Below, piece after piece: positions 5,282 to 22,129 of a DNA stretch of 35,821 nt. The stretch is from Aestuariivirga sp. (GTDB taxonomy: Bacteria > Pseudomonadota > Alphaproteobacteria > Rhizobiales > Aestuariivirgaceae): positions 1 through 35,821 of the forward strand of contig JBKJQU010000467.1 of NCBI GenBank assembly GCA_046594995.1, in the 5' to 3' direction. The notes beneath the pieces are model-generated. The model saw only the letters and a program-made list of their open reading frames with translations, ran no database searches and was not told the DNA's origin. Numbering within the stretch: the stretch's first letter is position 1; every line of letters starts with the position of its first letter. Made by a program: the position numbers and the translations under genes.

Positions 5282-5290
5282 GCGTTTTCC

Positions 5291-6424
5291 TTAGCCGACC
5301 GCGGTGCGCTTCTTCTTTTCGGGATCATCGAAGCTGATGGTATGAGCAATGGCTTTTGCCTCCAGGTTCCTGCCGCGTACTTCAAGCGGCGTTCCCTGCT
5401 TGGCATAAGGCACGTCCACACGAACAATGGCCATGCTCTTCCTGGTGAGCTTCGAATAGCTTGGGCAAGTGATAACGCCAACCTTTTTGCCATCGGCCCA
5501 CAGTTCGTCGCCGCCTTCAGCCATCTTGTCGCCGTCGATCAGAAGGCCGAATATCTTGAAGCGTTCCTTGCCCTTGAGCTTGTAGTGTTCCTCATGGCCA
5601 CGGAAGCCCGTCTTGCCGGGCGATACCGTAAATTCGAGACCCAGTTCCCAGAGCGAGTCGCCAGGCGGCTGGTCCGGAAACGGATACATCTGCGAATTGT
5701 CATAGGGATAAAACAAGAGGTAGCTTTCCACGCGCAGGAAATCGAGGGTGGTGAAGCTGACAGGCTTGATCCCCATGGGCTTGCCCTGTTCGAGGATCGT
5801 ATCCCAGATCATGCCGGCATCCTGCCCACGGCAGAAGATTTCGTAGCCACGCTCGCCGGTGTAGCCGGTGCGCGAGATCATGACAGGTGCGCCGAACAGC
5901 GTCGTCTGCATGTGATGAAAATAGCGGAGGTCGCGGATGCCCGGTACATGCTTGGCCAGGAAGTCAACGGCCACAGGTCCCTGCAGCGACAAGTCATGCA
6001 GATCGTCGTCGAACAGCACGGCGCAGTTGCGGCCCATGGCCTGCTTCATGATTTCCTCATGCGCCGTGCCGGAACCATGCACCACCATCCAGCTGTTGGG
6101 ACCGGTGCGGTATACGATGCAGTCGTCGGTGAATATGCCTCGGTCGTTGAGCATGCAGGCATAGACTGACTTGCCGGGATAGACCTTCGAAACGTCGCGC
6201 GTAGTGATGTAGTCGAGAACCGCGATAGCATGCGGCCCAACCAGATGAACCTTCTTCAGACCGGAGACATCCATGAGGCCCGCCTTGGTGCGGACTGTCG
6301 CATGCTGCTCGACCAGATCATCATCATAGGTCCATGCCGTGCCCATGCCGCTCCAATCCTCAAGCTTCGAGCCCAAGGCGCGATGGCGATCACCCAACGC
6401 AGAAAATCTCCAAGACAACGGCAT
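5291..6424 (-). CDS. dmmD: THF-dependent aminomethyltransferase-family protein DmmD
   Basis: GcvT fold motifs MDVSGL, FTDDC, SRTGYTGERGYEIF, RVES and C-terminal DPEKKKR. GGGAGG RBS; first gene of the dmm operon. Confidence 0.85.
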   Translation of the reverse strand: MPLSWRFSALGDRHRALGSKLEDWSGMGTAWTYDDDLVEQHATVRTKAGLMDVSGLKKVHLVGPHAIAVLDYITTRDVSKVYPGKSVYACMLNDRGIFTDDCIVYRTGPNSWMVVHGSGTAHEEIMKQAMGRNCAVLFDDDLHDLSLQGPVAVDFLAKHVPGIRDLRYFHHMQTTLFGAPVMISRTGYTGERGYEIFCRGQDAGMIWDTILEQGKPMGIKPVSFTTLDFLRVESYLLFYPYDNSQMYPFPDQPPGDSLWELGLEFTVSPGKTGFRGHEEHYKLKGKERFKIFGLLIDGDKMAEGGDELWADGKKVGVITCPSYSKLTRKSMAIVRVDVPYAKQGTPLEVRGRNLEAKAIAHTISFDDPEKKKRTAVG

Positions 6425-6603: not shown

Positions 6604-7935
6604 TCAGACGATCATGCTGCCGTCTCTCAGACTGGTGAAATAATCATCACTTCCAACCTGGCCGCCTTTCATCGCGATTTCGAGGCCGTCGAGTTCCGGG
6701 TCGCTGCTATGGGCGACGCAAAGCGGCGAGCCGGGCGTGGATTTCAATGGAAAGCGCAGCGTCAGTGCGAAGACATCGAGTTGGCCCAAGGCGTGGCTGG
6801 ATGTGTCGCCTCCGGCCAGGATCGCCCGGCGGAGACCGCAGGCCTTGATTGCATCGCGGGCAATTGCGCCCAAAGCTTCGCCGACACGTTGACGGCCGCC
6901 GGAGATCTGATCGAGGGCCGTGCCCTTGTCGTTTTCCGGGTCGAGGGCAGTATAGACGAGGACACTGCGTCCTTCCTTCAGGCGGGCGATGGATTCTTCT
7001 GAAAGGCGCCGCATCTTCTTGGCGCCTTGCTCTCCGGCGAGAAGAAGGGGGTCGGCCTCAATGCCGGTGAATCCATGGCCGAGTGCGTGGCGGATCTGGC
7101 GCGCGGTGGTTGGCGAGCAACTGCCAGAGATGGCGATGATCCGGTCGACAGGTTCGATGGGCTCGAAATCTGACTGCCCGGAAATGGTGCCTGCTTCCAC
7201 CCAGGCTTTGGCCAATGCGTAATTCACGCCGGAGGAACCCGCGATGAATGGACCAGCAGTTTCAGAGAGCCTCAAAAGCTGGCGGCCTGTCTCAATCTGG
7301 GTTGCGGCATCGAGAACGTCGAACAGAACGATGCCGTCATGCGACTGGGCAATCGTATCGACTGCATGGGCGCTGTCACCACTCAAGAGATTGGCGGGGA
7401 TGAGAGCAATCGGAATTTTCGTCTGGCGCGAAAGATGGATGCGAAGATCAGCCTCATCCATCGGCGTCACGGGATGGCGGCTCATCACAGGATGGCGGTC
7501 TATGCGATAAGTCTGTCCCTGATAGGCCGCAAAGAGATGACCGAAAGCCGTGTATCGTTTGAGTTGCGGGGCGCCGACAACAAGTGGCGTCAGATTCTGG
7601 CCAAAAACATTGCGCCCGATTTCAATGGCCTTGCCAATGCTGCCAACCGTGGGGCTTGAATCAAAGGTGGAGCAGACCTTGTAGTGGCAGTACTGTGCGG
7701 CGCGTTCCTTGAGCCAGCGGAAGTATCGCGGCAGATGCTCATCCATCCATTCAGGTGGATGGCTGCGGCTGGTGCCGGCAATGCCGATGGCACGGCAGCC
7801 AGGGAAACGCTGCAACTCTTCAGCATCAGGGATGCGTGTGAACAGGACCGTGTCAATGCCGTGGAGGCTGAGCGATTCCATCACATCGGTGGAACCTGTG
7901 AAGTCATCGCCATAGTAGGAGAGAAGCAGTGGCAT
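6604..7935 (-). CDS. oiaK: Four-carbon acid sugar kinase (DUF1537), 3-oxo-isoapionate kinase-like
   Basis: YYGDDFTGSTD, HYKVCSTFDSS, GSCSPTT, AGGDTS and KGGQVG motifs. Start overlaps the RLP stop (TGATG). Confidence 0.75.
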   Translation of the reverse strand: MPLLLSYYGDDFTGSTDVMESLSLHGIDTVLFTRIPDAEELQRFPGCRAIGIAGTSRSHPPEWMDEHLPRYFRWLKERAAQYCHYKVCSTFDSSPTVGSIGKAIEIGRNVFGQNLTPLVVGAPQLKRYTAFGHLFAAYQGQTYRIDRHPVMSRHPVTPMDEADLRIHLSRQTKIPIALIPANLLSGDSAHAVDTIAQSHDGIVLFDVLDAATQIETGRQLLRLSETAGPFIAGSSGVNYALAKAWVEAGTISGQSDFEPIEPVDRIIAISGSCSPTTARQIRHALGHGFTGIEADPLLLAGEQGAKKMRRLSEESIARLKEGRSVLVYTALDPENDKGTALDQISGGRQRVGEALGAIARDAIKACGLRRAILAGGDTSSHALGQLDVFALTLRFPLKSTPGSPLCVAHSSDPELDGLEIAMKGGQVGSDDYFTSLRDGSMIV

Positions 7936-9206
7936 CAGCCGGCCTTGCCGTCGCCGAAGAATTTCAGTGACGCGGCAAGCTCAGGGTGGTCCATTGCATA
8001 GGTCTCAAGCGGGACGCCCTTTACGGCAGCTTCCCAAGCCTGGCGCACGGCACGCACACCCGACGCAGCGCCACCCGGATGGCTAACGATACCGCCGCCG
8101 CAAAGATAGAGAAGATCCTGCGTCTTGCCCGTGCGCTCGTAAGTGTCAGGCGCCTGCCCACCCCATTGGCCTGACCCCGCCACTGGAAGCGGGCAATCGG
8201 CCTTGGAGAAGATCGGTTGCTGCAGCGAATTGAAAGAAGCGAGGAAGCTTTCATCTGGCTCCCAGTATTTGACGCGGATGCCGTTGATCTGGAACTGGTC
8301 GACACCGAGTAGCCGCCAGAATTGCTGGTAGACAGAGAAATCCATGCCCAGGCCCGGATGGCGGGTAAGAATGTCCCAGCCATTGCGGTGGGCGTGGAGG
8401 ACAAGGCCAGAGCGCTTTCGAAGGAATGCCATTCCGCCGAAGCCGATGGAATTAATGTTGATCACGGCACAGTTGCCGCCAGCCTTCAGCACCAAGTCAT
8501 GATTGCGCATGATGAAGTCGGGGTCGGCGTGGCTGATGCCGAAAGCGTACATGACTTTTCGACCTGTGCGCTGCTCGCGGTCGAGGATCAGCGGCATGAT
8601 AGCCCTCACGCGCTCTTCCAGCGGCGAGTAGGCAGGGCTCATCAGCTTCTCGTCGTCCTTGATGAAGTCGACATCGGCCTCGATCAATTCTCCTACCAGT
8701 TCAGCGGTTTCGTGAGGACGCAGGCCCAGCGCCGGCTTGACGATTGTTCCGATGATCGGCCTGTTATGGACGTTCGTGAGCTTCCGGCTTCCGGCAATGC
8801 CGAATTGGGGCCCTGGATGTGCGGCGGCAAAAGCATCTGGCAGATGCAGGCCGGTAACACGGATGCCGGTGAAGCCCCTGATCGAATAGATGCCCGCAAT
8901 CGCAATCGTCATGAGCGCAGACAAATCAGTGCCGACGGCATCCAACGGAAAATCAATATCGGCTTCGGCCCGGTTGAAAGGACCCACTTCGCTTGACGGA
9001 AAGGACGATTGCTTTACAGGAGCCAGACGCCTTACAGCCACAACGCGTGCGGCGACCCGGGCCTTGAGTTCTTCGGTCTCACCCGCCAGCGCCACAAAAG
9101 TTCCCGTAGACTGATCGCTCGCAATCTTGTTCGCGAGTTTTTCGGGATCTTCCGCCGTTTCAATGAGATAGGTCAGGCGGATCATATTGGATGCCGGGTT
9201 GCGCAT
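7935..9206 (-). CDS. oiaX: RuBisCO-like protein (form IV), 3-oxo-isoapionate-4-phosphate decarboxylase-like
   Basis: ASDQSTGT, GP.FGI.G.R, GTIVKPALG (second Lys of RuBisCO KPKLG is Ala), DFIKDDE carbamylation motif, HAHRNG and GGG..HP.G. Alternative start ATG 9185. Confidence 0.75.
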   Translation of the reverse strand: MRNPASNMIRLTYLIETAEDPEKLANKIASDQSTGTFVALAGETEELKARVAARVVAVRRLAPVKQSSFPSSEVGPFNRAEADIDFPLDAVGTDLSALMTIAIAGIYSIRGFTGIRVTGLHLPDAFAAAHPGPQFGIAGSRKLTNVHNRPIIGTIVKPALGLRPHETAELVGELIEADVDFIKDDEKLMSPAYSPLEERVRAIMPLILDREQRTGRKVMYAFGISHADPDFIMRNHDLVLKAGGNCAVININSIGFGGMAFLRKRSGLVLHAHRNGWDILTRHPGLGMDFSVYQQFWRLLGVDQFQINGIRVKYWEPDESFLASFNSLQQPIFSKADCPLPVAGSGQWGGQAPDTYERTGKTQDLLYLCGGGIVSHPGGAASGVRAVRQAWEAAVKGVPLETYAMDHPELAASLKFFGDGKAG

Positions 9207-9215
9207 GAGTGGTTT

Positions 9216-9247
9216 ACTGGTATGATGAACTGAACTGATGACAAACT
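9216..9247. promoter_or_regulatory. Candidate GntR/FadR operator sites in the divergent RLP/gntR spacer
   Basis: Two related boxes, ACTGGTATGATGAACT and ACTGATGACAAACT, resembling FadR-type TGGT/ACCA sites in a 58-nt divergent intergenic region. Confidence 0.35.
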
Positions 9248-9264
9248 AGCAGCCTTGTAATCTT

Positions 9265-9984
9265 ATGCAAACCGATCGCATCGTTCGTCGCAAACTTTCC
9301 GATGAAGTGCTGGAGCGGCTGCTCCGCATCATTTCTGAGGGCAATCTCAAGCCCGGCGATGCCATGCCATCTGAGCGTGAACTGATGGAACGCTTCGGTG
9401 TGGGACGGCCCGCAATTCGTGAGGCGATGCAATCCTTAAGCAACATGGGGCTGGTTTCGATTTCACATGGCGAGCGGGCGCGCGTTCAGGAACTCACCGC
9501 GCAATCAATCATCCGGCAGGTGGACCAGTCGGCGCATATCATGCTGTCCCGCTCATCCGACTCGCTGGAGCATCTGAAGAATGCCCGGCTGTTCTTCGAG
9601 CGCGGCATGGTGCGTGAGTCCGCCGAAAAGGCGACGCCTGCCAATATCGCTGCATTGAGGGCGACCGTTGCGGAGCAGCGCGAAAAGCTGGGCAAGGCGG
9701 AAGAATTCATGACCGCGGACATGCATTTTCATACACAGATCGCCGCGATTTCAGGCAATCCCATCTTTGTCTCGGTCAGCGAAGCGATGCTTGGCTGGCT
9801 CAAGGCCTACCACGTTGAATTGCTGTTCTGGAGCGGCAAGGAAACCTTCACCATCGGCGAGCACGAGCAAATCATCGCGGCCATCGAAAAGGGCGATGCC
9901 GATGCGGCGGAAGAGGCGCTGGTCATACACCTGAAGCGTTCCGCCATCCTCTATGCATTGAGCAATCAAAAAGAACAGGCTTAA
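9265..9984 (+). CDS. GntR/FadR-family transcriptional regulator (NanR-like, FCD domain)
   Basis: wHTH LSDEV...PSERELMERFGVGRPAIREA; FCD motifs ADMHFH..IA..SGNP and EHEQI. Confidence 0.9.
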   Translation: MQTDRIVRRKLSDEVLERLLRIISEGNLKPGDAMPSERELMERFGVGRPAIREAMQSLSNMGLVSISHGERARVQELTAQSIIRQVDQSAHIMLSRSSDSLEHLKNARLFFERGMVRESAEKATPANIAALRATVAEQREKLGKAEEFMTADMHFHTQIAAISGNPIFVSVSEAMLGWLKAYHVELLFWSGKETFTIGEHEQIIAAIEKGDADAAEEALVIHLKRSAILYALSNQKEQA

Positions 9985-10811
9985 GCCGATGCAAGTCCGA
10001 GGATTGCCCGAGCCTCCGCAGGGCTGGCGGCATGGCGGCCGTATGTGCCGCAAAGAACGGCAACGCGCTTGACGAGTTCGGCGTTGGAGGACGCGAGGCG
10101 CGTCTCGTCCCAGCGAATATTGTCTTCAAGCCCAGTCCGGCAGTGGCCACCGCGTTCGAGGCACCAGTGGTTCACTTCATGCTGATGCTTGCCGATCCCC
10201 GCCGCGACCCAGGTCGATTCCGGTGAAAGCCTCGTCACCTCATCCACCATGAAATCGAAAGCCTGGCGGATCACGGGCATAGCGTTCTTCACACCCATGA
10301 CGAACTGCACGTGCAGCGGCTTTCTGAGGAGCCCCTCATCCGCAAGACGCAGTGCCTGATAAAGCATCGAAAGATCAAAGACCTCGATTTCAGGCTTCAC
10401 GTTGTGGTCGAGCATCTTCTGCGCCAGTTCGCGGATCAGATCCGGGTGGTTCTCGTAAATGATTGTCGGAAAGTTGCAGGAACCCGTCGAGAGCGAGGCC
10501 ATGTCGGCGCCCAGATGCAGCATGCCGCCGCGCTCCGAACCCTTTCCGGAACGCCCTCCGGTGGAAAACTGCACGATCATGTCAGGGCAGTGCTTGCGCA
10601 AGCGTTCCAACAGCGCAGCGAAGCGATCAGGATCTGATGTCGGTGTCTGATCGTCTTTGCGCACGTGGACATGCGCGATGGTGGCTCCGGCCTCGAAAGC
10701 GGCATGGGTCGATTCAACCTGCTCCGTGATGGTGATGGGCACAGCCGGGTTGTGCTCCTTCCGCGGTACGGAGCCGGTGATAGCGACAGTGATAATGCAG
10801 GGCTTCGTCAT
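9981..10811 (-). CDS. 3-keto-5-aminohexanoate cleavage-family enzyme (BKACE, DUF849)
   Basis: IITVAITGS, HVHVR, STGG, SL.TGS.NF, PEIEVFD and RTGLEDN motifs. Start moved to ATG 10811, just after the GMC stop. Confidence 0.88.
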   Translation of the reverse strand: MTKPCIITVAITGSVPRKEHNPAVPITITEQVESTHAAFEAGATIAHVHVRKDDQTPTSDPDRFAALLERLRKHCPDMIVQFSTGGRSGKGSERGGMLHLGADMASLSTGSCNFPTIIYENHPDLIRELAQKMLDHNVKPEIEVFDLSMLYQALRLADEGLLRKPLHVQFVMGVKNAMPVIRQAFDFMVDEVTRLSPESTWVAAGIGKHQHEVNHWCLERGGHCRTGLEDNIRWDETRLASSNAELVKRVAVLCGTYGRHAASPAEARAILGLASA

Positions 10812-10813
10812 GA

Positions 10814-12460
10814 TCAGGCTTCGGCGTAGCGCTTTGTCTCGTTGCGCTCCCATTCCAGAACCGCGGGCGGAAGCAGCGGCTTTCCGGCAATAAGATCGGA
10901 GGCCTTCTCGCCGATCATGGTGGTTGGCGCGTTGGTGTTCGAAGAATTGATGAAGGGCATGATCGAACTGTCACCGACGCGCAGGCCTTCCAAGCCATGC
11001 ACCTTCAGGTCGGTGCCGACGACGGCCATCGAATCGTGCCCCATCTTGCAGGTGCCGACGGGGTGATGGTCGGTCTTCGCCATGCGACAGGCATATTCGA
11101 ATAGCTCTGCAGGATCGTTCACACCCGGCAGCACCTCACGCTTGACGAAAGGTTTCAGCGCCGGCTGCGACATGATCTCGCGTGCCAATTCAAGGCCGCG
11201 CAACGAGATCTGGAGATCGTAAGGATCGGACCAGAAGTTCGGATCGATCAGGGGTGCATCCGCGATGTTTGCCGTCGCCAGCCTCACAGTGCCGCGCGAG
11301 CGTGGACGCAAAAAGGCGGAGTTCAACGTCACGCCGGCATTGTCGAGCTTGGCGATGCCGGCCTCGATTCCAGAACCCTGACCAAAATGGAACTGGATAT
11401 CGGGCGAGCGCGCCTCTGGATCGGCATACCAGAAGGCGCCGGTTTCGAAGAGCGATGAGACAACGGGACCAGACTTGAACAGAAGATACTGCAGGCCCGC
11501 CATCATCATCCGATGCGGCTTCTGCAAGCCATCATAGGAATGATCGCCGGTGCATTCGGAGAGAACGCAGATGTCGACGTGATCCTGCAGGTTGGAGCCT
11601 ACGCCCGGCAGATCATGCACGACATCGACGCCCACAGATTTCAGATGATCGGCAGGCCCGATGCCCGACAGCATGAGCAGGCGCGGCGAGCCGATTGCGC
11701 CGGATGTGATGAGGATTTCGCGTTCGGAGCGATATTCCTTCGTCTCGCCGTTGACAATCGCCTTCAGGCCCACCGCCCTGCCCTTCTCCACCATGATGCG
11801 GGTGGCGAGGGCACCAGAGATCACCGTGAGATTCCTGCGCGATCTTGCGGGATTGAGAAAGCCGGTAGCGGCAGATGAACGGCGCGCGTTCTTCTGCGTC
11901 AACTGATAATAGCCAGCACCACGCTGATAGCGGCCGTTGAAATCCGGGTTGTAGGGAATGCCGGCCTGCTGCGCGGCGCGAATAAAGGCATCGCAGATGG
12001 GCAGCGCGCTCTTGGGCATGGTAACACCAATTGGCCCGTCGGTACCGTGATAATCATCATGGAAGCGTTCGTTTCCCTCGGCGCGCTTGAAGTAAGGAAG
12101 AATGTCGCGGTAGCCCCAGCTTTCGCAGCCGCCTTCATCGCGCCAGCCGTCATAGTCCTCTGCATTGCCGCGCGTATAGACCTGCGCGTTGATGGTGGAA
12201 CCGCCGCCCACGACCTTCGCCTGCGTGTACCACAGCACACGATCCTTCATATGCTTCTGAGGAACCGTTGACCATCCCCAGGAGGCTATCCCTTTCGTCA
12301 TCTTCGCGAAGCCGGCCGGCCAGTGGAAGAGATAGTTTGAATCCGGGCCGCCTGCTTCGAGCAGCAGGACTGACACATCGGGATCTTCCGTCAAGCGGCT
12401 GGCCAGCACGCAGCCCGACGTTCCAGCACCTGAAATGATGTAGTCGAAACTGGTGGTCAC
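10814..12460 (-). CDS. GMC-family FAD oxidoreductase (L-sorbose dehydrogenase-like)
   Basis: FDYIISGAGTSG, GGGSTINAQ, GAIGSP.LL.LSGIG, NLQDH, HHPVGTCKMG and NTNAP motifs. Start GTG 12460 with GGAGG RBS. Confidence 0.9.
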   Translation of the reverse strand: MTTSFDYIISGAGTSGCVLASRLTEDPDVSVLLLEAGGPDSNYLFHWPAGFAKMTKGIASWGWSTVPQKHMKDRVLWYTQAKVVGGGSTINAQVYTRGNAEDYDGWRDEGGCESWGYRDILPYFKRAEGNERFHDDYHGTDGPIGVTMPKSALPICDAFIRAAQQAGIPYNPDFNGRYQRGAGYYQLTQKNARRSSAATGFLNPARSRRNLTVISGALATRIMVEKGRAVGLKAIVNGETKEYRSEREILITSGAIGSPRLLMLSGIGPADHLKSVGVDVVHDLPGVGSNLQDHVDICVLSECTGDHSYDGLQKPHRMMMAGLQYLLFKSGPVVSSLFETGAFWYADPEARSPDIQFHFGQGSGIEAGIAKLDNAGVTLNSAFLRPRSRGTVRLATANIADAPLIDPNFWSDPYDLQISLRGLELAREIMSQPALKPFVKREVLPGVNDPAELFEYACRMAKTDHHPVGTCKMGHDSMAVVGTDLKVHGLEGLRVGDSSIMPFINSSNTNAPTTMIGEKASDLIAGKPLLPPAVLEWERNETKRYAEA

Positions 12461-12527
12461 GCAGGGCCTCCGTATGGGAACAACATATTCTAGAGGCGAA
12501 ATCCGCACTGTCCAGAGGCAAGGAGGC

Positions 12528-12555
12528 TTGCCATTTGTAACCACTTGGTTATCAT
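12528..12555 (+). promoter_or_regulatory. Sigma70-like promoter with an embedded palindromic (TetR-type) operator
   Basis: TTGCCA-N16-TATCAT whose spacer contains the perfect palindrome TAACCA-CT-TGGTTA (12538-12551), in the divergent GMC/AKR gap. Confidence 0.6.
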
Positions 12556-12591
12556 GCTGCGACAGGTGAATGTCAAGCTGGAGGTGGCCCT

Positions 12592-13611
12592 ATGCCTGCT
12601 ATCGCAAAGCGCAAGTTCGGGCGTGCCGACTTTCGGGTGACCGACATGGGGTTTGGCGCAGCACCCATCGGCAACTTCCTGCGGCCGATCACAGAAGACG
12701 TATCGGAAGCCATGGTACAGCGGGCATGGGACCACGGCATGCGCTATTTCGATACGGCGCCTTATTATGGGCATGGCCTTTCGGAAGCCCGCCTCGGGCA
12801 CTCGCTGCGCTGGAAGACGCGGGGTGATTTCGTGATATCGAGCAAGGTGGGGCGCGTTCTGAAACCGGCGAGGCGGTCATCCATCAATTTTGCACCTTGG
12901 GTCGATGCGTTGCCGAACGTCTGTCATTTCGACTACACCTATGATGGCACCATGCGGAGCTTCGAGGATTCGCTGCAGCGGCTGGGCCTTGAGCATATCG
13001 ACATCCTCTTCATCCACGATGCAGATGTGTTTACCCATGGTGAAGCGCAACAGAAGATCTATTTCAAGCAGGCGATGGAGGGCTCCTACCCGGCGCTCGT
13101 CAAGCTTCGGGAGCAAGGCGCCGTCAAGGCCATCGGCGTCGGTGTCAATAACTGGGACGTGATGCTTGACTTCATGAAGGCGGGTGACTTCGATTGCCTG
13201 CTGATGGCCGGGCGGTATACGCTTCTGGAGCAGGAACCACTCGACGAGCTGATGCCGTTGTGCGAGCAGCGTGGCGCTGCAATCGTGATCGGCGGCGGGC
13301 TGAACAGCGGCATCCTGGCAACGGGCGCCGTGCCGGGAGCGAAATACAATTATTCGCCTGCCCCTGAACACATCATGGAGCGCGTGCGGCAGATCGAAGC
13401 CGTGTGCAGAGCGCATGGTGTGCAACTAGCCGCAGCGGCGCTGCAGTTCCTTCTGGCGCATCCTGCTGTCGCAAGCCATGTGCCGGGCACCCGCACGGTG
13501 GAACAGATGGACCAGAACGTGGCGTGGATAAGCTATCCCATTCCACCCGCCTTCTGGACCGACCTCAAGGACAAGGGATTGTTGCGGAAAGATGCGCCCG
13601 TTCCGGCATGA
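12592..13611 (+). CDS. Aldo/keto reductase (D-threo-aldose 1-dehydrogenase / L-fucose dehydrogenase-like)
   Basis: GFGAAPIGN, FDTAPYYGHGLSE, SKVGR, SLQRLG, IHD, AIGVG.N and GRYTLL motifs. GGAGG RBS. Confidence 0.88.
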   Translation: MPAIAKRKFGRADFRVTDMGFGAAPIGNFLRPITEDVSEAMVQRAWDHGMRYFDTAPYYGHGLSEARLGHSLRWKTRGDFVISSKVGRVLKPARRSSINFAPWVDALPNVCHFDYTYDGTMRSFEDSLQRLGLEHIDILFIHDADVFTHGEAQQKIYFKQAMEGSYPALVKLREQGAVKAIGVGVNNWDVMLDFMKAGDFDCLLMAGRYTLLEQEPLDELMPLCEQRGAAIVIGGGLNSGILATGAVPGAKYNYSPAPEHIMERVRQIEAVCRAHGVQLAAAALQFLLAHPAVASHVPGTRTVEQMDQNVAWISYPIPPAFWTDLKDKGLLRKDAPVPA

Positions 13612-14285
13612 AGAAGCCCAAGCCAGCCGCCGCACCGCGGACGCGTGATCCTGACGCAACGAGGCTTCGCATTCTCGCGGCGGCAAAGAGCGAATTCGCA
13701 AGGAAAGGGCTTGGCGGTGCGCGCGTCGACGATATTGCGGCGAAGGCGAAGATCAACAAGCGGATGCTCTACCACTACTTCGGCAACAAGGAGGAACTAT
13801 TCCGGCGCACACTTGAAGATGCATATCGCGCTTTCCGTGCCACAGAAGCCGAGTTGATGATCGAGCAGGACGAGCCGATCACCGCGCTAAAGCGGCTGAT
13901 GACATTCACGTGGGAATACTACGTCGCAAATCCGGAGTTCATCACGCTGGTAAACAGCGAGAACCTGCACAAGGCGCGGCATATCCGGAAATCCGATGTG
14001 ATGGACACGATCAACAAGCCCTTTGTGGCGCGAATGGAAACATTGCTGGAACGCGGTGTTTCCAAAGGCGTGTTCAGGCCTGGCCTCGATGCGGTTCAAG
14101 TGTTGATCGCGCTCGCCGGTCTTGGATTTCACTACCTCAATAACAGGCATACCGGAGCCATCGTCTATGGCCGCGACCTGATGAGCGAAGAGGCAAAAGC
14201 TGTGCGGCTCCAATTCAACATTGACGCCGTGCTGCGGATCGTCTGCCGGCCGGAGACACTGATGCAAGTTGAGAAGCAGCGATGA
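13608..14285 (+). CDS. TetR/AcrR-family regulator
   Basis: RDPDATR.RIL.AA..EFA.KG..GARVD.IA......KRMLYHYFG.KE. Start moved to ATG 13608 (ATGA overlap with the AKR stop). Confidence 0.9.
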   Translation: MKKPKPAAAPRTRDPDATRLRILAAAKSEFARKGLGGARVDDIAAKAKINKRMLYHYFGNKEELFRRTLEDAYRAFRATEAELMIEQDEPITALKRLMTFTWEYYVANPEFITLVNSENLHKARHIRKSDVMDTINKPFVARMETLLERGVSKGVFRPGLDAVQVLIALAGLGFHYLNNRHTGAIVYGRDLMSEEAKAVRLQFNIDAVLRIVCRPETLMQVEKQR

Positions 14286-15043
14286 ATGGCAGAGCGCTGG
14301 TGACGGGTGCCCGGCGCGGCATCGGCAAGGCGATTGCGCTGGCTCTTGCTGCCGAAGGTTTCGATGTCGCAGTATCAGACATCACGCTTTCAGAAGACTT
14401 GATCGGTACAGCTCAAGAGATCGAGAAGCTGGGCTGCAAGAGTACCGCCATCGCAGGCGACATCTCGAAGATCGAAGACCACGGTTGGATGCTGGATGAA
14501 GCAGAGTCCGCCATCGGGCCGTTGACGACGCTCGTCAACAATGCCGGCGTCTCGGTTATGGTGCGTGGAGACCTGCTAAATGTAACGCCCGAGAGCTATG
14601 ACCGCTGTCTTGAAGTCAACACGCGGGGGACGTTCTTTCTGACGCAGGAATTTTCCCGCCGGGTGCTAAAGGTTGAGAGCGAAGCGCATCGCTCGATCGT
14701 GACAGTGTCTTCCGCCAATGCCATTGCACCCTCCATCGCGCGCGGCGAATACTGTGTGTCGAAAGCCGGCATCTCCATGGTGTCGAAGCTCTTCGCGGCA
14801 CGGCTGTCGAATGATGGGATCGGCGTCTATGAAATCCAGCCGGGCTTCATCGAAACAGACATGACGGCGCCATCCAAAGCGAAATACGATACGCTGATTG
14901 AAAGCGGGCTGACCGTCATTAAGCGCTGGGGAAAGCCCGAGGAAGTGGCGCGCATCGCAGTGACCCTGGCAACCGGGCTTCTTCCCTACACAAGTGGACA
15001 GATCATCCAAGCCGATGGCGGCCTCCTCTCCGTGAGGTACTGA
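14282..15043 (+). CDS. Short-chain dehydrogenase/reductase (3-ketoacyl-ACP reductase-like)
   Basis: TGARRGIG, NNAG, YCVSK catalytic motif and PG.I.TDMT. ATGA overlap with tetR. Confidence 0.9.
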   Translation: MNGRALVTGARRGIGKAIALALAAEGFDVAVSDITLSEDLIGTAQEIEKLGCKSTAIAGDISKIEDHGWMLDEAESAIGPLTTLVNNAGVSVMVRGDLLNVTPESYDRCLEVNTRGTFFLTQEFSRRVLKVESEAHRSIVTVSSANAIAPSIARGEYCVSKAGISMVSKLFAARLSNDGIGVYEIQPGFIETDMTAPSKAKYDTLIESGLTVIKRWGKPEEVARIAVTLATGLLPYTSGQIIQADGGLLSVRY

Positions 15044-15046
15044 CCT

Positions 15047-16201
15047 ATGAAGATCAAGCTTCCGAAATCCGATGGTACGTTCGAGACCTATCTCCTTACC
15101 GGAGAACCGTTGCACATCAGAAAGCCATGCGGTGAGTTCAACCGTATGGCCTTCGCAGCAGCGCATGTGGTGGCCGACCCGTTGTCGAACAGCGATCCTT
15201 CAGGCTCGCCCGCCATCGACTGGGACAAGACGCTGGCCTTCCGCTCGCATCTCCTCGACCTCGGCTTTGGAATTGCGGAGGCTATGGACACATCTCAGCG
15301 CGGCACAGGCCTCGACTGGCCGCGCGCGCTGGAACTGATCGGGCATTCGCTAAAATCCGCAGGCAAGCGCGCTGGCCTGATCTATTCGGGCTGCGGTACA
15401 GACCAACTGGCTGCCGGCGCGGCACACACACTGGACGATGTGATCCGCGCCTATCTTGAACAGTTGCATGCGATCCAGAAGCTCGATGGCCGCATCATCA
15501 TGATGGCCAGCCGCGCGCTGGTGCAGGTTGGGAAATCGCCGGACGATTATGTGAAAGTCTATGGCCGCGTTCTTTCCGAGGCGGATCATCCGGTAGTCTT
15601 GCACTGGCTGGGTGACATGTTCGATCTGGCACTGAAAGGTTATTGGGGCACGCAAGACTTCGAGGCCGCGATGGAGACAAGCCTTGAGGTGATTGCCACC
15701 AACGCCCAGAAAATTGATGGCATCAAGATCTCGCTTCTCGATGACAGCAAGGAAGTGGTGATGCGGCGGCGCCTGCCGGCGCACGTCAAGATGTATACGG
15801 GCGACGATTTTAACTATCCCGACCTGATCGCCGGCGACGATCAGGGGTTTTCCCACGCACTGCTCGGCATATTCGATGCGATAGCACCAGCAGCTTCGGC
15901 CGCGCTTGATGCACTCGCCAAGGGCAACATGAAAAAGTATCACGCGCTGATGGCTCCAACCGTGCCGCTATCGCGCCTGATCTTCCGTTCGCCAACGCAG
16001 TATTACAAGACGGGCATCGTGTTCCTCGCCTGGCTGAACGGGCATCAGGATCATTTCGTCATGGTGGGCGGCGCGCAGGCAATGCGGCCTCTGCCCTACT
16101 TCACCGAAATATTCAAGCTTGCGGACCAGGCAGGGCTGCTGGCAGACCCGGCACTTGCGATAAGACGAATGAATCAGATGCTGGCACTCTACGGTGTCTG
16201 A
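15047..16201 (+). CDS. DUF993 / dihydrodipicolinate synthase-like TIM-barrel protein
   Basis: AAAHVVADP, AEAMDTSQRG, LHWLG.MFD..L.GYWG, GIKISLLD, YTGDDFNY and HALLGIFD motifs typical of DUF993. Confidence 0.8.
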   Translation: MKIKLPKSDGTFETYLLTGEPLHIRKPCGEFNRMAFAAAHVVADPLSNSDPSGSPAIDWDKTLAFRSHLLDLGFGIAEAMDTSQRGTGLDWPRALELIGHSLKSAGKRAGLIYSGCGTDQLAAGAAHTLDDVIRAYLEQLHAIQKLDGRIIMMASRALVQVGKSPDDYVKVYGRVLSEADHPVVLHWLGDMFDLALKGYWGTQDFEAAMETSLEVIATNAQKIDGIKISLLDDSKEVVMRRRLPAHVKMYTGDDFNYPDLIAGDDQGFSHALLGIFDAIAPAASAALDALAKGNMKKYHALMAPTVPLSRLIFRSPTQYYKTGIVFLAWLNGHQDHFVMVGGAQAMRPLPYFTEIFKLADQAGLLADPALAIRRMNQMLALYGV

Positions 16202-17055
16202 TGCGCGATCTGGGCCAGTACCTTGAATTCTGCTCAATCAATACCGCAACGTTGGGCTTTCAAGCTCCAATCGAACAGGTGATCGATGCGGTGGCGCTTG
16301 CTGGATTTGGCGGCATTGCGCCATGGCGGAGAGAAGTGGAAGGCAAGGATGTCGCATCGATCTCGCGGCGCATCCGCGAGGCCGGCCTCAAGGTCTCAGG
16401 CTATTGCCGTAGCACGTACATTCCAGCAACAACGCAGGATGGTTTCGCAGCAAATGTGGAAGCAAACCGTCGCGCCATCGAAGATGCGGCAATGCTCGGT
16501 TCATCCTGCTTCGTCATGGTGGTGGGAAGCCTTCCGGAAGGATCGAAGGATATCGCTGGCGCCCGCGCGCAGGTGGCGGATGCTACTGCTGTGCTGGTCG
16601 AGCACGGCAAAGCTTGCGGCGTGAAGATTGCGCTGGAGCCGCTCCACCCGGTTTATGCGGCAGATCGTTCCTGTTTGTCGCTGCTGTCAGAGGCACTGGA
16701 CATCTGTGACGCCATTGAGGGCGGTGCGGATGATCCGTGGCTTGGCACGTTGCTTGACGTCTATCACCTGTGGTGGGACCCAAACCTCGGCCGCGACATT
16801 GCGCGGGCGGGCAAATCGCGCCGTATCTTCGGCTTTCATGTGTGCGACTGGTTGTTGCCCACAAAGGACGTTCTGAATGATCGCGGGATGATGGGCGATG
16901 GCGTGATCGACGTGCCACAGATCCGCGCGATGGTTGAAAAGACCGGCTATGCCGGACCTGTGGAGGTCGAAATATTTTCCTCCCACGACTGGTGGAAGCG
17001 GCCCATGGATGAAATACTGAAGGTCTGTGGAGAGCGGCTGGCAACGGCATCTTAG
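16201..17055 (+). CDS. Sugar phosphate isomerase/epimerase (xylose isomerase-like TIM barrel)
   Basis: SINTAT, ALEPLHP.YAADR, DVYHLWWD, HVCDW, DRGMMGDG.ID and EVEIFS metal-binding motifs. Coupled to DUF993 (TGATG). Confidence 0.87.
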   Translation: MRDLGQYLEFCSINTATLGFQAPIEQVIDAVALAGFGGIAPWRREVEGKDVASISRRIREAGLKVSGYCRSTYIPATTQDGFAANVEANRRAIEDAAMLGSSCFVMVVGSLPEGSKDIAGARAQVADATAVLVEHGKACGVKIALEPLHPVYAADRSCLSLLSEALDICDAIEGGADDPWLGTLLDVYHLWWDPNLGRDIARAGKSRRIFGFHVCDWLLPTKDVLNDRGMMGDGVIDVPQIRAMVEKTGYAGPVEVEIFSSHDWWKRPMDEILKVCGERLATAS

Positions 17056-17450
17056 TCCCGGCGGCCCTTCATCCATGACGGATTGATGGTGCGGCCTGCG
17101 CGCGTACCCAATGCCGAAATATTTGCCATGTCTTTGTCCGATAATTCAAAATTCAACGCGTTGATGTTCGAGAGGGCATTCTCTCGCTTCGTGGTCATGG
17201 GAATTGCAGCAACGCCCTGCTGGGTGATCCATCGCAGCACGACTTAGGAGGCGAGGCGGCCGAGCCGCGCAGTAATGTCTTGCACGACTTTTGGCTGCAT
17301 GGCTTTGCCACGCGCCAGTGGGCTGTAGGCCGTGAGGGTGATACCGAGACTCTGTGCTTCCCGCAGAAGCTCTGTCTGATCAAGCAGTGGATGGAATTCG
17401 ATTTGATTGACGATGATAGCTCCACCCGCTAGGTGCTGCGATGCCCTGTC
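17052..17450 (-). pseudogene. Aldo/keto reductase (DkgA/B-like) C-terminal fragment with an internal stop
   Basis: One frame reads VNQIEFHPLLDQ...LTAYSPLARG...RLAS*VVLRWITQQG..AIP.TTKREN...N.....FELS. In-frame TAA at 17244-17246; the N-terminal half is absent. Confidence 0.8.
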
Positions 17451-17520
17451 CTATGCGCCGGTGATGGAGCAACTCTCGCGCGGTTATGCGCCAGTTGCCG
17501 ACCAGTGCGGGCTGGTGGAA

Positions 17521-18204
17521 CTGATATGGATACACAATGTTCCGGTAGCCAACGTCGGTTTCGTGCTGGCCCGTACCGGTCCAGCAGCAGGCCATCGCGG
17601 CATGTCGATCTTCATTGTCGATCTCCACACGCCGGGCGTTTTACGCGGCAAGAAAGAGCGGAAGATGGGTCAACGGGCTTCGCAGGTTGGGGCGCTCCAT
17701 TTCGACAATGTACAACTCGGCGAGGATGCGCTTCTGGGCCAGATGAACCGCGGCTTCCACATCAGGATGAGCGTACTCGACAAAGGGCGCCTCGGGATCG
17801 GCGCGCCGTCGGTGGGAATTGCACAGACTGGACTGGACGCGGCAGTCGATTACGCTAGGAGACGTAAGCAGTTCGGCAGGCCGATTGCCGATAACCACGG
17901 ATTGCAATGGCTGCTGGCAGACATGAAACTAGACATTACCGCCGCACGCGCGCTCGTTCATTGTACAGCAATGACCTTGGTTCAATGTCTTTCCCCCACG
18001 ATGGACTGCTCAATTGCCAAGTGCTTTGCCGGTGATGTGGCCGTGACACATACTGCCAATGCGGTACAGGTCTTTGGCGGTTCTAGTTATAACCGGGGGT
18101 TCGAGGTGGAGCGGCTTTACCGGGATGCTAAAATTACGCAACTTTATAAGGCCAGGAACCAGATCCAGCGCACCATTATTGCCCGCGAATTGCTGAAGAC
18201 CTGA
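17521..18204 (+). pseudogene. Acyl-CoA dehydrogenase, N-terminally truncated and degenerate
   Basis: Begins mid-protein at the KxWIxN-equivalent (LIWIHN), then KERKMGQR, RRKQFG and AVQVFGG. The conserved YEGT is YKAR and GGxGY is GGSSY. Confidence 0.75.
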
Positions 18205-18515: not shown

Positions 18516-18607
18516 CAGTTCGCGAGGTCATGCGCCGTTCGCATCATCTCGATCCGGGGTACCGGACCGGCGATGCACCGGCTTTCAATGTCATTGTGGG
18601 GGTTTTC

Positions 18608-20416
18608 ATGAGGCCATTACCAGCTGTGGTCTATCGCGAACAGAGTCTTGGCCCAGCACCGGGGCAAGGCCTGGTCAACGGCCTCGCCATTTTCCTCGCG
18701 ATCTGCGCCATCTTATATTTCGGCAGCGAGATCCTGATACCGATGGCACTTGCGCTGCTGCTGTCGATCCTACTGGCACCTTTGGTGTCGATGTTGCAAC
18801 GTCTGAGACTGCCCAAGGCAGTGGCAGCGATCAGTGCCGTACTGACGGCGTTCGCTATTCTATCGGTGATTGCAGTAGTGGTAGGATCTACGCTTGCCAA
18901 TCTGGCAGCTGATCTTCCCTCATATGAGTCAAGTCTGCGCGAAAAGGCACACAACCTAAAGGCAATGACCTCCGGTGGAGGAACGCTGGAGCGCGCTGCA
19001 GACGTTCTTGAGGATCTTCGCACGGAACTCCAGTCTCCGGATATTAAGCAGCCTGGCGCTGTTTCAGAGCCGAAGCCAATTCCCGTTGAAGTGCGTGAGC
19101 CCGGTTTTGGCCCCTTTAGTTCGGTGTTCACGATCCTTGGCATTCTTGTCCATCCGCTGACGCAGCTGGGCATCGTGGTTCTGATGGTCACGTTCATTCT
19201 GATTTATCGCGAGGACTTGCGGAACCGACTGATCAGGCTGGCGGGAACAGGCGATCTTCACCGGACGACCACGGCGCTTGACGAGGCCGGCAGCAGACTG
19301 AGCAGGCTATTCGCCACACAGTTGATGATCAATGCCATGACTGGCGCTTTCATCGGCACGGCGTTGTTCTTCCTCGGTGTGCCAGGCGCAATTTTGTGGG
19401 GTGTGCTGACGACCGTGCTGCGCTTCATACCCTACGTGGGAACGTTCCTGGCCTCGGTGTTCCCGATCATCATTGCGGTTGCCGCAGGCGACGGTTGGAC
19501 TCTGGCCTTGACGACCATTGGCGTTGTTCTGACGACTGAACTGATCGTCGGACAGATTCTTGAACCGTTGTTTTTCGGAAAGTCTACCGGGCTTTCGCCG
19601 GTGGCAATCGTCGCCGCTGCAGCTTTCTGGACAGCATTGTGGGGCCCTCTCGGACTGGTGCTGGCAACGCCCATCACCATCGTGCTGCTGGTCGTGGGGC
19701 GGCACATTGAGGCGTTGGAATTTCTTGAGGTACTGCTGGGTTCGACACCCGTTTTGACGCCCGATCATGTTTTTTATCAGCGTATGCTGGCCAGTGATCC
19801 GGTGGAAGCTGGCGAACAGGCCGACGCATATCGGGAAACCGGCGAGCTCGGCAAGTACCTGACCGACGTCGTCATCCCGGGATTGCTGCTAGCGCAACAT
19901 GACAAGGACAGGAAAGTGCTTCCCCCCGACCGTGAGATCTCGGTCGTCAGCACATATTCGCAATTGCTGGATGATGTGTGGCCCGCTGCAGACGCGAAAT
20001 CAGATGCAGCGTCTTCTGTGCTTCTCATTTCCGCGCATGGAGCGCTGAACTTTGCGGCAACTTTGTCTGTTTCGGCCTTTTTGCGTTTGAAACATATTCC
20101 GCACCGCCTTTTGCCGCAGGAAGCGATCACGCCAGACAAGTTTCCGGAAGATCAAGCGAAAGGTGCCCAGTTCGTCTGCCTCTGCTATCTTCAGGCTCCC
20201 TCTGCCGCGAAGTATTCCTACCTGGAGAAGCGCATCAGCATGCGCCTGCCGGAGGCTAGAGTGCTTGGTCTTGCGTGGCGTGATACCGAGGACGGGCGCA
20301 CCATGATCAATCCCGAACATGCAGCGGCAATGTTGCCTGCGCCCGTCACGCCTGATGCCGAAAACGTGAAGTTTTCAGAGCAGGCCGTTTCGGAGTTTTC
20401 TGCCGCAACATCATGA
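18608..20416 (+). CDS. AI-2E family transporter with a C-terminal soluble domain
   Basis: Hydrophobic helices; EDLRNRLIRL, LRFIPYVG, LEP..FG.STGLSP and LWGP.GLVLATP motifs. Alternative start ATG 18530. Confidence 0.88.
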   Translation: MRPLPAVVYREQSLGPAPGQGLVNGLAIFLAICAILYFGSEILIPMALALLLSILLAPLVSMLQRLRLPKAVAAISAVLTAFAILSVIAVVVGSTLANLAADLPSYESSLREKAHNLKAMTSGGGTLERAADVLEDLRTELQSPDIKQPGAVSEPKPIPVEVREPGFGPFSSVFTILGILVHPLTQLGIVVLMVTFILIYREDLRNRLIRLAGTGDLHRTTTALDEAGSRLSRLFATQLMINAMTGAFIGTALFFLGVPGAILWGVLTTVLRFIPYVGTFLASVFPIIIAVAAGDGWTLALTTIGVVLTTELIVGQILEPLFFGKSTGLSPVAIVAAAAFWTALWGPLGLVLATPITIVLLVVGRHIEALEFLEVLLGSTPVLTPDHVFYQRMLASDPVEAGEQADAYRETGELGKYLTDVVIPGLLLAQHDKDRKVLPPDREISVVSTYSQLLDDVWPAADAKSDAASSVLLISAHGALNFAATLSVSAFLRLKHIPHRLLPQEAITPDKFPEDQAKGAQFVCLCYLQAPSAAKYSYLEKRISMRLPEARVLGLAWRDTEDGRTMINPEHAAAMLPAPVTPDAENVKFSEQAVSEFSAATS

Positions 20417-20467
20417 TTCTACGGTTATTTTTGAATATTTTCCACAGGGTGTAAGTTCAATTCCTTC

Positions 20468-20492
20468 GGAACTACACGGAATCCCAGCCGTT
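20468..20492 (+). promoter_or_regulatory. sigma-EcfG promoter (csbD)
   Basis: Perfect GGAAC-N16-CGTT. Confidence 0.8.
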
Positions 20493-20540
20493 ACATACCT
20501 ATATCCACTACTTCAAATTCTGAGAACAGGAGAGCACGGC

Positions 20541-20738
20541 ATGGATTGGGATCGCATTGAAGGTAACTGGAAGATTTTTAAAGGCAACGCCAAGTCACAG
20601 TGGGGTAAACTCACGGATGACGATCTGGATGTAATAGAAGGTCGGCGGGAAGAACTCGAAGGCCGTCTGCAGAGTTCCTATGGCTTTGAGAAGGATCGTG
20701 CCCGCAGTGAAGTGGATAGCTGGCTAAAATCGCTCTGA
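20541..20738 (+). CDS. csbD: CsbD family general stress protein
   Basis: MDWDRIEGNWK..KG..K..WGKLTDDDL....G.RE.L.G.LQ..YG; AGGAGA RBS. Confidence 0.93.
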   Translation: MDWDRIEGNWKIFKGNAKSQWGKLTDDDLDVIEGRREELEGRLQSSYGFEKDRARSEVDSWLKSL

Positions 20739-20782
20739 ATCAGTCAGCGACTCAAGATCTCTTCCGATAAAGGAACAAGATT

Positions 20783-20956
20783 ATGCGCTACTTTGTGGTG
20801 TTAGTGTTGACTTTGTGCCAGTTCACGGCATTGCCGTTTCTTTCGATGGTGGCGGCCAACACCGCACGGCAACAGGTCAATGCGGTTGAGCTAACAGGCA
20901 ATCACGCTGCCAATACCCAAAATGTGACGACCGTCTTCAAGACGGTGTCAATGTAA
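20783..20956 (+). CDS. 57-aa hypothetical protein with a signal-peptide-like N-terminus (not in the ORF track)
   Basis: MRYFVVLVLTLCQFTALPFLSMVAANTARQQVNAVELTGNHAANTQNVTTVFKTVSM*, with an AAGGA RBS, 44 nt after csbD. Confidence 0.5.
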   Translation: MRYFVVLVLTLCQFTALPFLSMVAANTARQQVNAVELTGNHAANTQNVTTVFKTVSM

Positions 20957-21262
20957 CAGGTTTCTACACTTTCGGCTAAGCACAGGGCTTGGAATATATC
21001 CCAGGTCCTGTGCATCGTGCTTACGATAAAAACGATTCAATACCGATAAAAATTGCAACCCAGAACATGATTTTAGCACCTCCCATGGCATTGCCAGTGA
21101 CTCCTCCAAAGCCGAGGAGCATCGTGCTGTCGCTTTAGGGCATTGGGCGAGCAAGTGGAATCACTTGCGATGCGAAAAATGCGCCAGAATCTAAGCTTTC
21201 GAACAACTTATCGGCAAATAGACCGCCGGCTGCTCAGCAAAATTCCGGAGCGTTCTCCCCGT

Positions 21263-21862: not shown

Positions 21863-22032
21863 TCTTGAAGCTCGTCAGCCTTGTCGAGATCCTTAAGAAG
21901 ATCGAGGAAACGTTGCGGCACATCTTGCCGCGAAATATCGTCATAGTAAGTCTTGAGCTTGCTACTCACGGCTTCCTTGACCACGTGCTGGGCATTAGAG
22001 GCCCGTGACTTCTTCACCTGTTTATCGCTCAT
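21859..22032 (-). CDS. nepR: Anti-sigma factor NepR (57 aa; not in the ORF track)
   Basis: MSDKQVKKSRASNAQHVVKEAVSSKLKTYYDDISRQDVPQRFLDLLKDLDKADELQD* matches the NepR core L..YD.....VP.RF.DLL..L, in the canonical position. Confidence 0.88.
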   Translation of the reverse strand: MSDKQVKKSRASNAQHVVKEAVSSKLKTYYDDISRQDVPQRFLDLLKDLDKADELQD

Positions 22033-22086
22033 GATAGTTATTTCGCGCGCCCCCGACCGCTGCTTTGCAACGGTTTATTGGTCCAT

Positions 22087-22111
22087 AATGCATTCAGCTC
22101 ATCTTTGTTCC
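22087..22111 (-). promoter_or_regulatory. sigma-EcfG promoter (nepR-ecfG)
   Basis: Minus-strand GGAAC-N16-CATT. Confidence 0.75.
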
Positions 22112-22129
22112 GTAAGAATTAAAAAATGT

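Follow-up and report, generated by a model that had tools for sequence, protein, structure and literature searches.

Two divergent, tightly packed transcription units surround a gene of the family DUF993 in the stretch of DNA analysed here (the window; 35,821 nucleotides and an entire contig of its own genome, the 78% complete Aestuariivirga sp. assembly G000), and the question that this locus raises is which of its genes belong together and what they degrade. An earlier note had read both units, together with an adjacent kinase and RuBisCO-like protein (RLP), as a single ~10 kb pathway in which a sugar is oxidised to a 3-keto acid that serves either a cleavage enzyme for beta-keto acids (BKACE) or the kinase and RLP. 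The locus is found to hold a real, undescribed catabolic module, with a boundary and a chemistry unlike those first proposed. It is put forward, at a probability of about one half, that a conserved gene set, of which the window carries a part, breaks down 1,5-anhydro-hexitols by an aerobic route with a CoA ester as intermediate.

All seven open reading frames (ORFs) were recovered in Pfam and NCBIfam profile scans, and the families, the divergent layout and the tight coupling were as the earlier note had described them. The leftward unit starts with a GMC flavoprotein of 548 aa, here called type B (10814-12460, minus strand; PF00732/PF05199), which has the GMC fold with a His466/Asn510 pair as in L-sorbose 1-dehydrogenase and which presumably resembles the L-sorbose dehydrogenase of Gluconobacter. 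It is followed by the BKACE gene (9981-10811, minus strand; PF05853), with 2 bp between the GMC stop and the BKACE ATG. Across a divergent gap of 131 bp, the rightward unit encodes an aldo-keto reductase (AKR) of the L-galactose-dehydrogenase-like group (12592-13611, plus strand; PF00248; Asp54/Tyr59/Lys85/His142 conserved), a TetR-family regulator (13608-14285, plus strand; PF00440 and PF17938, i.e., TetR_N and TetR_C_29), a short-chain dehydrogenase/reductase (SDR) that passes the PRK12745 group model (14282-15043, plus strand; Ser144/Tyr157/Lys161), DUF993 (15047-16201, plus strand; PF06187) and a TIM barrel of the AP-endonuclease-2 type (16201-17055, plus strand; PF01261), a relative of SMc04130. 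The junctions in this order measure -4, -4, +3 and -1 bp, and the true starts of GMC and TetR lie downstream of those of the longest ORFs. The GMC protein is predicted to be a primary-alcohol (C6) dehydrogenase, and the AKR is predicted to oxidise the aldehyde (hydrate) that it forms. In the TIM barrel, residues E146, D186, H189, H213, R228 and E257 are at least 95% conserved (61 rows); they match a Glu/Asp/His/Glu metal site with His and Arg, which we take to be the signature of ketose 3-epimerases and IolI-type enzymes. This agrees with the metal-dependent isomerase or epimerase named in the earlier note, and a keto-sugar epimerase/isomerase is predicted.

Gene content was compared among 80 DUF993 loci, the best 80 of 596 confirmed ones, from 14 of the 64 parts of the collection; flanks extended up to 10 kb, several were shorter, so that absences there are weak, and partners were counted by tblastn at 38% identity over half of the length. 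The nearest of these loci carry the labels Aestuariivirga or Hyphomicrobiales. The TIM barrel is the most frequent partner (61 loci), followed by CoA-transferase (43), enoyl-CoA hydratase (39), SDR (34), TetR (33), acyl-CoA dehydrogenase (ACAD; 27), GMC and Gfo/Idh/MocA (25 each), aldehyde dehydrogenase (ALDH; 21), a second AKR (AKR2; 16), AKR (14), 1,5-anhydrofructose reductase (AFR; 13), MaoC (9) and glycerate kinase (8). RLP and the kinase were each found once, and BKACE and GntR in none. The co-occurrence that had been anticipated for DUF993 was thus borne out for GMC and SDR and failed for BKACE and RLP, and the existence of an uncharacterised sugar-type catabolic module was supported in the form of a conserved set. 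Three locus types were distinguished, namely, a LacI type built on AFR; a TetR type with CoA enzymes, ACAD, TIM barrel and two AKRs, the AFR-less variant, to which the window belongs; and a Gfo-DUF993-TIM type (25 loci) that lacks CoA enzymes and in many cases has tricarboxylate-type transporters. SDR and Gfo/Idh/MocA never occurred together (0/80), nor did CoA-transferase and Gfo, patterns which, like the locus types themselves, are confounded with kinship. Two genomes of the same genus have the LacI/AFR type in place of the TetR type (G053:C25 and G006:C3; loci L179 and L180), so that both cluster types exist within one genus.

In G000, a further contig, C356, holds in one run a second GMC (~49-50% identical to the window GMC), a CoA-transferase, an enoyl-CoA hydratase and a sugar ABC system. 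It is very likely that GMC, AKR, TetR, SDR, DUF993 and the TIM barrel form one half of the conserved set and that C356 carries the other half, the whole being probably a TetR regulon. The two halves are linked by a palindrome. A perfect 14-bp copy, TAACCA-CT-TGGTTA, lies at 12538-12551 between the -35 and -10 elements of a sigma70-like site of the rightward unit (12528-12555, plus strand; TTGCCA-16-TATCAT), and its degenerate form, TAACYRNNYRGTTA, is found a short way upstream of the C356 run. The 28 bp at 12528-12555 are identical in the nearest relative, G120, and the flanks diverge. From its position and co-occurrence, the palindrome at 12538-12551 is likely the TetR operator. TetR control, as supposed in the earlier note, is therefore probable, given this palindrome on the rightward promoter; the regulator itself, however, sits inside the rightward operon as its second gene. 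The motif was found in none of 19 BKACE-only regions, was absent from all four relatives examined that lack DUF993 and was present twice in G120. Among eight regions fetched later, it stood at the module promoter in seven, the eighth having no module gene except a weak transporter match. The sigma70-like sites by themselves are not above chance (3 in 9.5 kb vs 4.6 in shuffles); that of the leftward unit (12487-12514, minus strand; TGGACA-16-TAGAAT) is a consensus match only and is not kept in G120. Rfam gave no match in the window, and repeats and terminators were at chance level. As a side observation, the ends of C356 and a third contig, C457, overlap (97% over 426 bp), which places genes for another ABC ATPase, a SAF/homoserine-dehydrogenase-like protein and, probably, a pyruvate dehydrogenase E1, all labelled by a look at their sequences, upstream of the second operator.

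To the right of the module, the window has suffered a deletion. About 800 bp that are present in G120 are missing, which fuses the 3' part of a DkgB-like AKR2 (17073-17447, minus strand; 5' half deleted) to an ACAD remnant (17440-18204, plus strand) that has lost its 5' end and an internal segment and in which the catalytic YEG motif is replaced, leaving it without the catalytic Glu. The deletion also took a weak operator-like site that G120 has. One contig of the public run X3 spans the AKR2-ACAD junction without a gap, and no second close ACAD copy was found in G000. In other loci, AKR2 and ACAD are regular members of the module.

The substrate is suggested by the company of the window-type GMC. 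It occurs in 28 of 300 sampled genomes of the order (a count that includes kin and is not one of independent cases), of which 27 also carry DUF993, lying within 20 kb in 22 of them, and 22 also carry AFR (within 20 kb in 21), against a base rate of 10% for AFR. In 20 regions around window-type GMCs, SDR was found in 17, the third GMC type of the afr operons in 15 and the hydratase in 13; neither BKACE nor RLP was found in any of them. The operon of Sinorhizobium meliloti runs LacI-AFR-CoA-transferase-hydratase-ALDH-ABC-GMC-SDR-GMC-glycerate kinase, divergent from DUF993, the identity of AFR resting on PDB 2glx/4koa. Its last GMC before glycerate kinase is 67% identical to the window GMC and corresponds by gene order to SMc04390; the table consulted in PMC12542648 labels this gene L-sorbose dehydrogenase and shows SMc04390-92 and SMc04132-39 falling together. 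The binding protein of this operon resembles glucose binders, including 8hqq, which is glucose-bound (PMC11485210, as far as consulted), and smc04396 is reported as dextrin-induced in the part of PMC4960864 consulted. The third GMC of the afr operons resembles the large subunits of glucose and fructose dehydrogenases. The TIM barrel is absent from all 13 AFR loci, and no orthologue was found in 9 of 10 AFR-type genomes. Because G000 has no close AFR and shares GMC, SDR, DUF993, CoA-transferase and hydratase with these operons, the substrate is borrowed from the sister AFR operon, and for 1,5-anhydro-hexitols as the substrate class the odds are judged to be roughly even.

An anhydro-hexitol has no anomeric hydroxyl, and its ring therefore cannot open. 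L-sorbopyranose is 5-hydroxy-1,5-anhydroglucitol, with C1 of sorbose corresponding to C6 of the anhydro sugar, so that an enzyme dehydrogenating sorbose at C1 would act on the latter position. A Sinorhizobium sorbose dehydrogenase, which may or may not be an orthologue of the window GMC, is reported to react with 1,5-anhydroglucitol by a title among the references of PMC8135088. In the proposed route, the sugar ABC transporter would import the substrate, GMC would oxidise the exocyclic C6 alcohol, and AKR or ALDH would yield a 1,5-anhydro-uronate. CoA-transferase would activate this acid and render H5 acidic, upon which the crotonase (hydratase) could eliminate the C4 hydroxyl, leaving a cyclic enol ether; both Glu residues of the crotonase and that of the CoA-transferase are conserved. 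Through its Lys, DUF993 would then hydrate this ether, so that the ring opens to a 2-keto-3-deoxy-hexonate, which DUF993 perhaps also cleaves to pyruvate and a C3 unit, and glycerate kinase is a recurrent neighbour of DUF993 loci. By Fischer projection, the manno series would lead directly to 2-keto-3-deoxygluconate (KDG) and the gluco and galacto series to the L-threo isomer, requiring an inversion for which the TIM barrel with SDR and AKR2 is proposed; the third GMC of the afr operons together with AFR could convert gluco to manno. The absence of the TIM barrel from AFR loci and its presence in the AFR-less type fit a manno series that needs no inversion. All steps are inferred, and the complete step order is tentative. 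Equally tentative is the broader proposal of an aerobic, non-radical opening of the 1,5-anhydroglucitol ring in which DUF993 would act as a Schiff-base enol-ether hydratase/aldolase of a new His type, the AFR type would run from manno to KDG and the TetR type would add the TIM inversion for gluco. A role of AKR as a strict substitute for ALDH was rejected, both being present together in several loci.

The structure of DUF993 is consistent with such a role. Its predicted model (pLDDT 90) matched 4dnh, the only hit of a PDB sequence search, and then 27 rows that all belong to DHDPS/NAL (Z 23.8-29.1 over ~290 residues; next family 14.8), and Foldseek against DHDPS/NAL gave an E of about 1e-9. The protein is thus a DHDPS/NAL-type (beta/alpha)8 barrel with C-terminal helices, which supports its earlier description as aldolase-like. 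Lys227 is invariant in 60 rows and lies on the sixth barrel strand, its equivalence to the Schiff-base Lys being by strand order only; His186 is likewise invariant, and Asp81-Thr82 and Gly252-Asp253-Asp254 form further motifs. A GxxGE loop and a catalytic Tyr on strand 5 are hallmarks of DHDPS and pyruvate aldolases, and both are seen in the genome's own DapA. Because, by strand order, His186 takes the place of the Tyr and AMDTSQRG that of GTTGE, DUF993 is probably not a plain pyruvate aldolase, and a Schiff-base ring-opening hydratase/aldolase is predicted instead.

Several observations weigh against an anhydro-hexitol route through a CoA ester. Firstly, 25 of the 80 DUF993 loci have no CoA enzymes, and ACAD, electron transfer flavoprotein (ETF) and MaoC have no forced role in the route, where they may widen the substrate range; in the window, ACAD and AKR2 are broken. 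No close orthologue of ALDH (best 37%) or AFR (none at 1e-100, best 31-34% partial) was found in the 78% complete G000, nor was AFR found in the window. The G000 binding protein differs from its counterpart in the afr operon (no match at 1e-10), its identity to a Rhizobium one being 25%, so that the substrate range may differ. In DUF993, AMDTSQRG and His186 stand at places inferred to match the GxxGE loop and the Tyr, and a profile comparison of DUF993 with DapA (hhalign) was not significant. The palindrome is unremarkable by count, with 3 matches in G000 vs 1.16 expected by chance, and these represent two distinct sites, since the hit on C457 repeats one of them where two contig ends overlap; position, not count, therefore carries the argument. 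Its occurrence in 31 of the 80 DUF993 loci (53 sites in 1.46 Mb) was counted in the same loci from which the motif was derived. Lastly, the published route of S. morelense, as given in the consulted text of PMC12441222, takes anhydromannitol to mannose through C1 hydroxylation by an unidentified enzyme, not via a CoA ester.

Some of these points would suit a regulon with the same CoA-dependent elimination acting on another ether- or glycoside-locked sugar, e.g., small alkyl glycosides or heterosides, five-ring anhydro-polyols, or deoxy-anhydro sugars that need ACAD. The missing AFR, the differing binding proteins and the recurrence of ACAD (27/80) and MaoC (9/80) fit this alternative, as do the two GMC paralogues, ~49-50% alike, under one operator. 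However, most genomes with the window-type GMC carry it inside AFR operons, and the scan of recurrent neighbours in the 80 loci showed no glycosidase; such a substrate is considered unlikely, if the least so of the alternatives.

The Gfo-type loci, with their lack of CoA enzymes and frequent tricarboxylate-type transporters, suggest a second alternative, in which free unsaturated uronates released from polysaccharides would be handled by an SDR-DUF993-TIM core, the GMC and CoA genes being a separate feed. In G000, however, this core shares its operator with the GMC-CoA-transferase-hydratase run and a sugar-type ABC system, which renders the alternative improbable. An enolase-like protein was found in 14 of the 80 loci, all of Gfo type and none with CoA-transferase; it has 470 aa and a weak PF13378 match, lies beside Gfo-DUF993-TIM (L057:7395-8810, L073:17351-18775 and 12 other loci) and may perform the same elimination without CoA.

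About as improbable is a route for L-sorbose or keto-gluconate, in which GMC would form L-sorbosone, ALDH or AKR would form 2-keto-L-gulonate, AKR2, SDR and the TIM barrel would interconvert keto-aldonates and DUF993 would carry out an aldol cleavage. The label of the probable S. meliloti GMC orthologue, matched by gene order (PMC12542648, as far as consulted), speaks for it, as does the score of AKR2 on DkgB (228 bits; cut-off 327). The CoA-transferase and hydratase, coupled to GMC and present in 43 and 39 of the 80 loci, would have no role in it, since 2-keto acids carry no alpha hydrogen, and AFR is left unexplained.

The reading of the earlier note depends on BKACE and the kinase/RLP block, both of which proved to be local neighbours. 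BKACE (which passes NF053568, the 3-oxoadipate type, with 472.5 vs a cut-off of 350) and GntR (9265-9984, plus strand) are convergent and overlap by 4 bp; GntR forms a separate unit (6604-9984) with the RLP (7935-9206, minus strand) and a DUF1537-type kinase (6604-7935, minus strand). The GntR-BKACE and BKACE-GMC junctions are each bridged by contigs of public runs, and since single contigs in X1 and X3, either of which is possibly the source of the window, span the latter, it is no assembly artefact. In the window, BKACE is probably co-transcribed behind GMC, yet it is no conserved member of the module. Of 150 family genomes, 118 have BKACE, 62 have DUF993 and 57 have both, and among these 57 the two lie within 10 kb in one, G120, as compared by eye in assemblies whose fragmentation could hide links. 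In the 300 order genomes, BKACE was present in 6 of the 28 with the window GMC type vs a base rate of 31%. Nine close relatives have BKACE directly after AKR2, beside GntR-RLP-kinase, with the divergent units absent, their AKR2 falling into one group (100/99) with the AKR2 of DUF993 loci from the same family; ten other relatives have BKACE among unrelated neighbours. Four relatives hold BKACE, RLP, kinase and an ApnO-like gene and lack DUF993 and the operator, G118 has the same divergent units beside GntR/RLP with no BKACE between, and the whole arrangement is common to the window and G120. The blocks thus probably adjoined one another in the ancestor of a small clade, with independent losses; BKACE is, in this best explanation, a lineage-specific neighbour. 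Its 63% identical relatives adjoin pcaG and pcaD, and BKACE genes in that position are discussed as G4 BKACEs in the consulted part of PMC8963497. No intradiol dioxygenase (PF00775) was found in G000 (78% complete).

The RLP passes the OiaX model NF042437 (764.8 vs a cut-off of 700), and of three kinase models, OiaK (NF042436) gives the kinase its best score, which is still under the cut-off (472.7 vs 700). RLP and DUF993 lie no more than 10 kb apart in 2 of 31 family genomes and also in L009, where 6 kb separate them; the link of RLP to the divergent units that these cases support is local. A PF16896 protein, a family we take to be that of apionate oxidoisomerase (ApnO), is encoded elsewhere in the genome (G000:C68:5119-6304; L130:1498-2325) and was present in 5/5 relatives tested; it had no NCBIfam match, the label ApnO-like rests on PF16896 membership, and PDB 5t57 is not mentioned in the ApnO paper. 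The gene adjoins those of an HpcH-type aldolase and a probable 2-hydroxyacid dehydrogenase. It is probable that this protein supplies the kinase and RLP and that the pair serves an apionate route, a unit apart from the DUF993 set. In loci L108-L115, which belong to relatives, a phosphoenolpyruvate-hydrolase-like PF09370 gene (family checked for L111) follows RLP-kinase and is missing at that place in the window. A single ~10 kb pathway with BKACE as the C-C cleavage step is therefore very improbable: BKACE 2 bp behind GMC, an arrangement also in G120, the divergent units beside GntR/RLP/kinase in G118, the short distance in L009 and the real deoxyribonate pattern of SDR, BKACE and glycerate kinase (PMC6365646, as far as consulted) speak for it, against which stand the absence of BKACE from all 80 DUF993 loci and 20 GMC regions, its proximity in 1 of 57 genomes with no genome-level association, the 2 of 31 for RLP, the independent losses, the separate ApnO-like gene in G000 and 5/5 relatives, and the match of BKACE to the 3-oxoadipate model with its pcaG/pcaD-adjoining relatives. 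Tight packing can mislead.

The remainder of the window holds genes of other functions. At 25-6424, a methylamine cluster, syntenic in G120, contains a trimethylamine monooxygenase gene (1278-2618; passes NF058570), DmmA-like, reductase and haem N-demethylase genes, and two aminomethyltransferase genes, one of which is the cut end of a trimethylamine N-oxide (TMAO)-demethylase-like gene. A general-stress-response block at 18530-25555 comprises an AI-2E transporter, an extracytoplasmic function (ECF) sigma factor (21263-21862), a PhyR-type regulator, a lipid-kinase-like gene and a Crp-type regulator, and GC is lower at ~20-24 kb. At 27129-28819, a hydroxyacid dehydrogenase (NAD_binding_2) is coupled to a second AP_endonuc_2 barrel, a pair that presumably resembles tartronate-semialdehyde reductase and hydroxypyruvate isomerase. 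A 282-aa ORF at 34938-35786 (minus strand) has no Pfam match and may be spurious.

The literature search found no CoA route for anhydro sugars and no function for DUF993 (subscription papers were mostly outside its reach and supplements outside its scope); among the 30 papers listed of 441 on AFR and CoA, none dealt with the operon, and no paper found names DUF993, SMc tags and PF06187 occurring in passing mentions only, in agreement with the earlier view that the family has no assigned reaction. The consulted text of a 2025 review (PMC12441222) states that an aerobic oxidative pathway for 1,5-anhydroglucitol has not been described and that the step following AFR has no identified enzyme, and it names two inherited neutropenias for which an oxygen-tolerant enzyme for this sugar would be wanted. 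For each step, the gene set provides named candidates; these occur in cultured carriers, with structures that are solved and unassigned (4dnh, 3ju2), and, if the anhydro-hexitol reading is true, a function would be assigned to DUF993, which was found in 91 of the 300 sampled order genomes.

Among known systems, the DHDPS/NAL superfamily (YagE, HOG aldolase, L-KDA dehydratase and the NahE/PhdJ hydratase-aldolases) shares with DUF993 its fold and, as far as strand order shows, the invariant Lys and the Gly-Asp-Asp motif, whereas DUF993 differs in an identity of 10-15%, in having His186 for Tyr and AMDTSQRG for GTTGE, and in ~90 extra residues. Polysaccharide-lyase-type elimination is a further close comparison. 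The D-apionate route (ApnO, OiaK, OiaX; PMC13753588, as far as consulted) is matched by the window RLP, which passes OiaX, and the PF16896 gene on C68, whereas the kinase stays below the OiaK cut-off and the unit is outside the DUF993 set. In the oxidative deoxyribonate pathways (Price et al. 2019; PMC6365646, in the text consulted), oxidation and cleavage of a sugar acid are likewise followed by glycerate kinase; one variant employs acyl-CoA intermediates, another SDR and BKACE. There, however, an open-chain 2-deoxy acid is cleaved at its 3-keto group by thiolase or BKACE, whereas the window set has no thiolase among its recurrent partners, no conserved BKACE and no conserved SDR-BKACE linkage (0/80 DUF993 loci, 0/20 GMC regions), and has crotonase and DUF993. 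The YbiW/PflD glycyl-radical routes for anhydrohexitol-6-phosphates (PMC12441222, likewise in part) concern the same proposed substrate class and the same ether-ring problem, whereas they are radical, phosphorylated and oxygen-sensitive, and no such genes are in the window set. Among the closest systems is the Sinorhizobium afr locus, with which the set shares the GMC type (67%), SDR (44%), DUF993, CoA-transferase, hydratase and a sugar ABC system, split in G000 between the window and C356 with one palindrome. The afr locus has LacI control, AFR and a third GMC type, whereas the window set has TetR, the TIM barrel, two AKRs and ACAD; for the former, the consulted text of PMC12441222 (via Kuhn, Yu and Giffhorn 2006) presents AFR as the only characterised member and C1 hydroxylation to mannose, by an unidentified enzyme, as the continuation. 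What the window adds to this picture is a GMC in common that ties the TetR type to the AFR type, the contrasting distribution of TIM barrel and AFR, and a module boundary that leaves BKACE and RLP outside.

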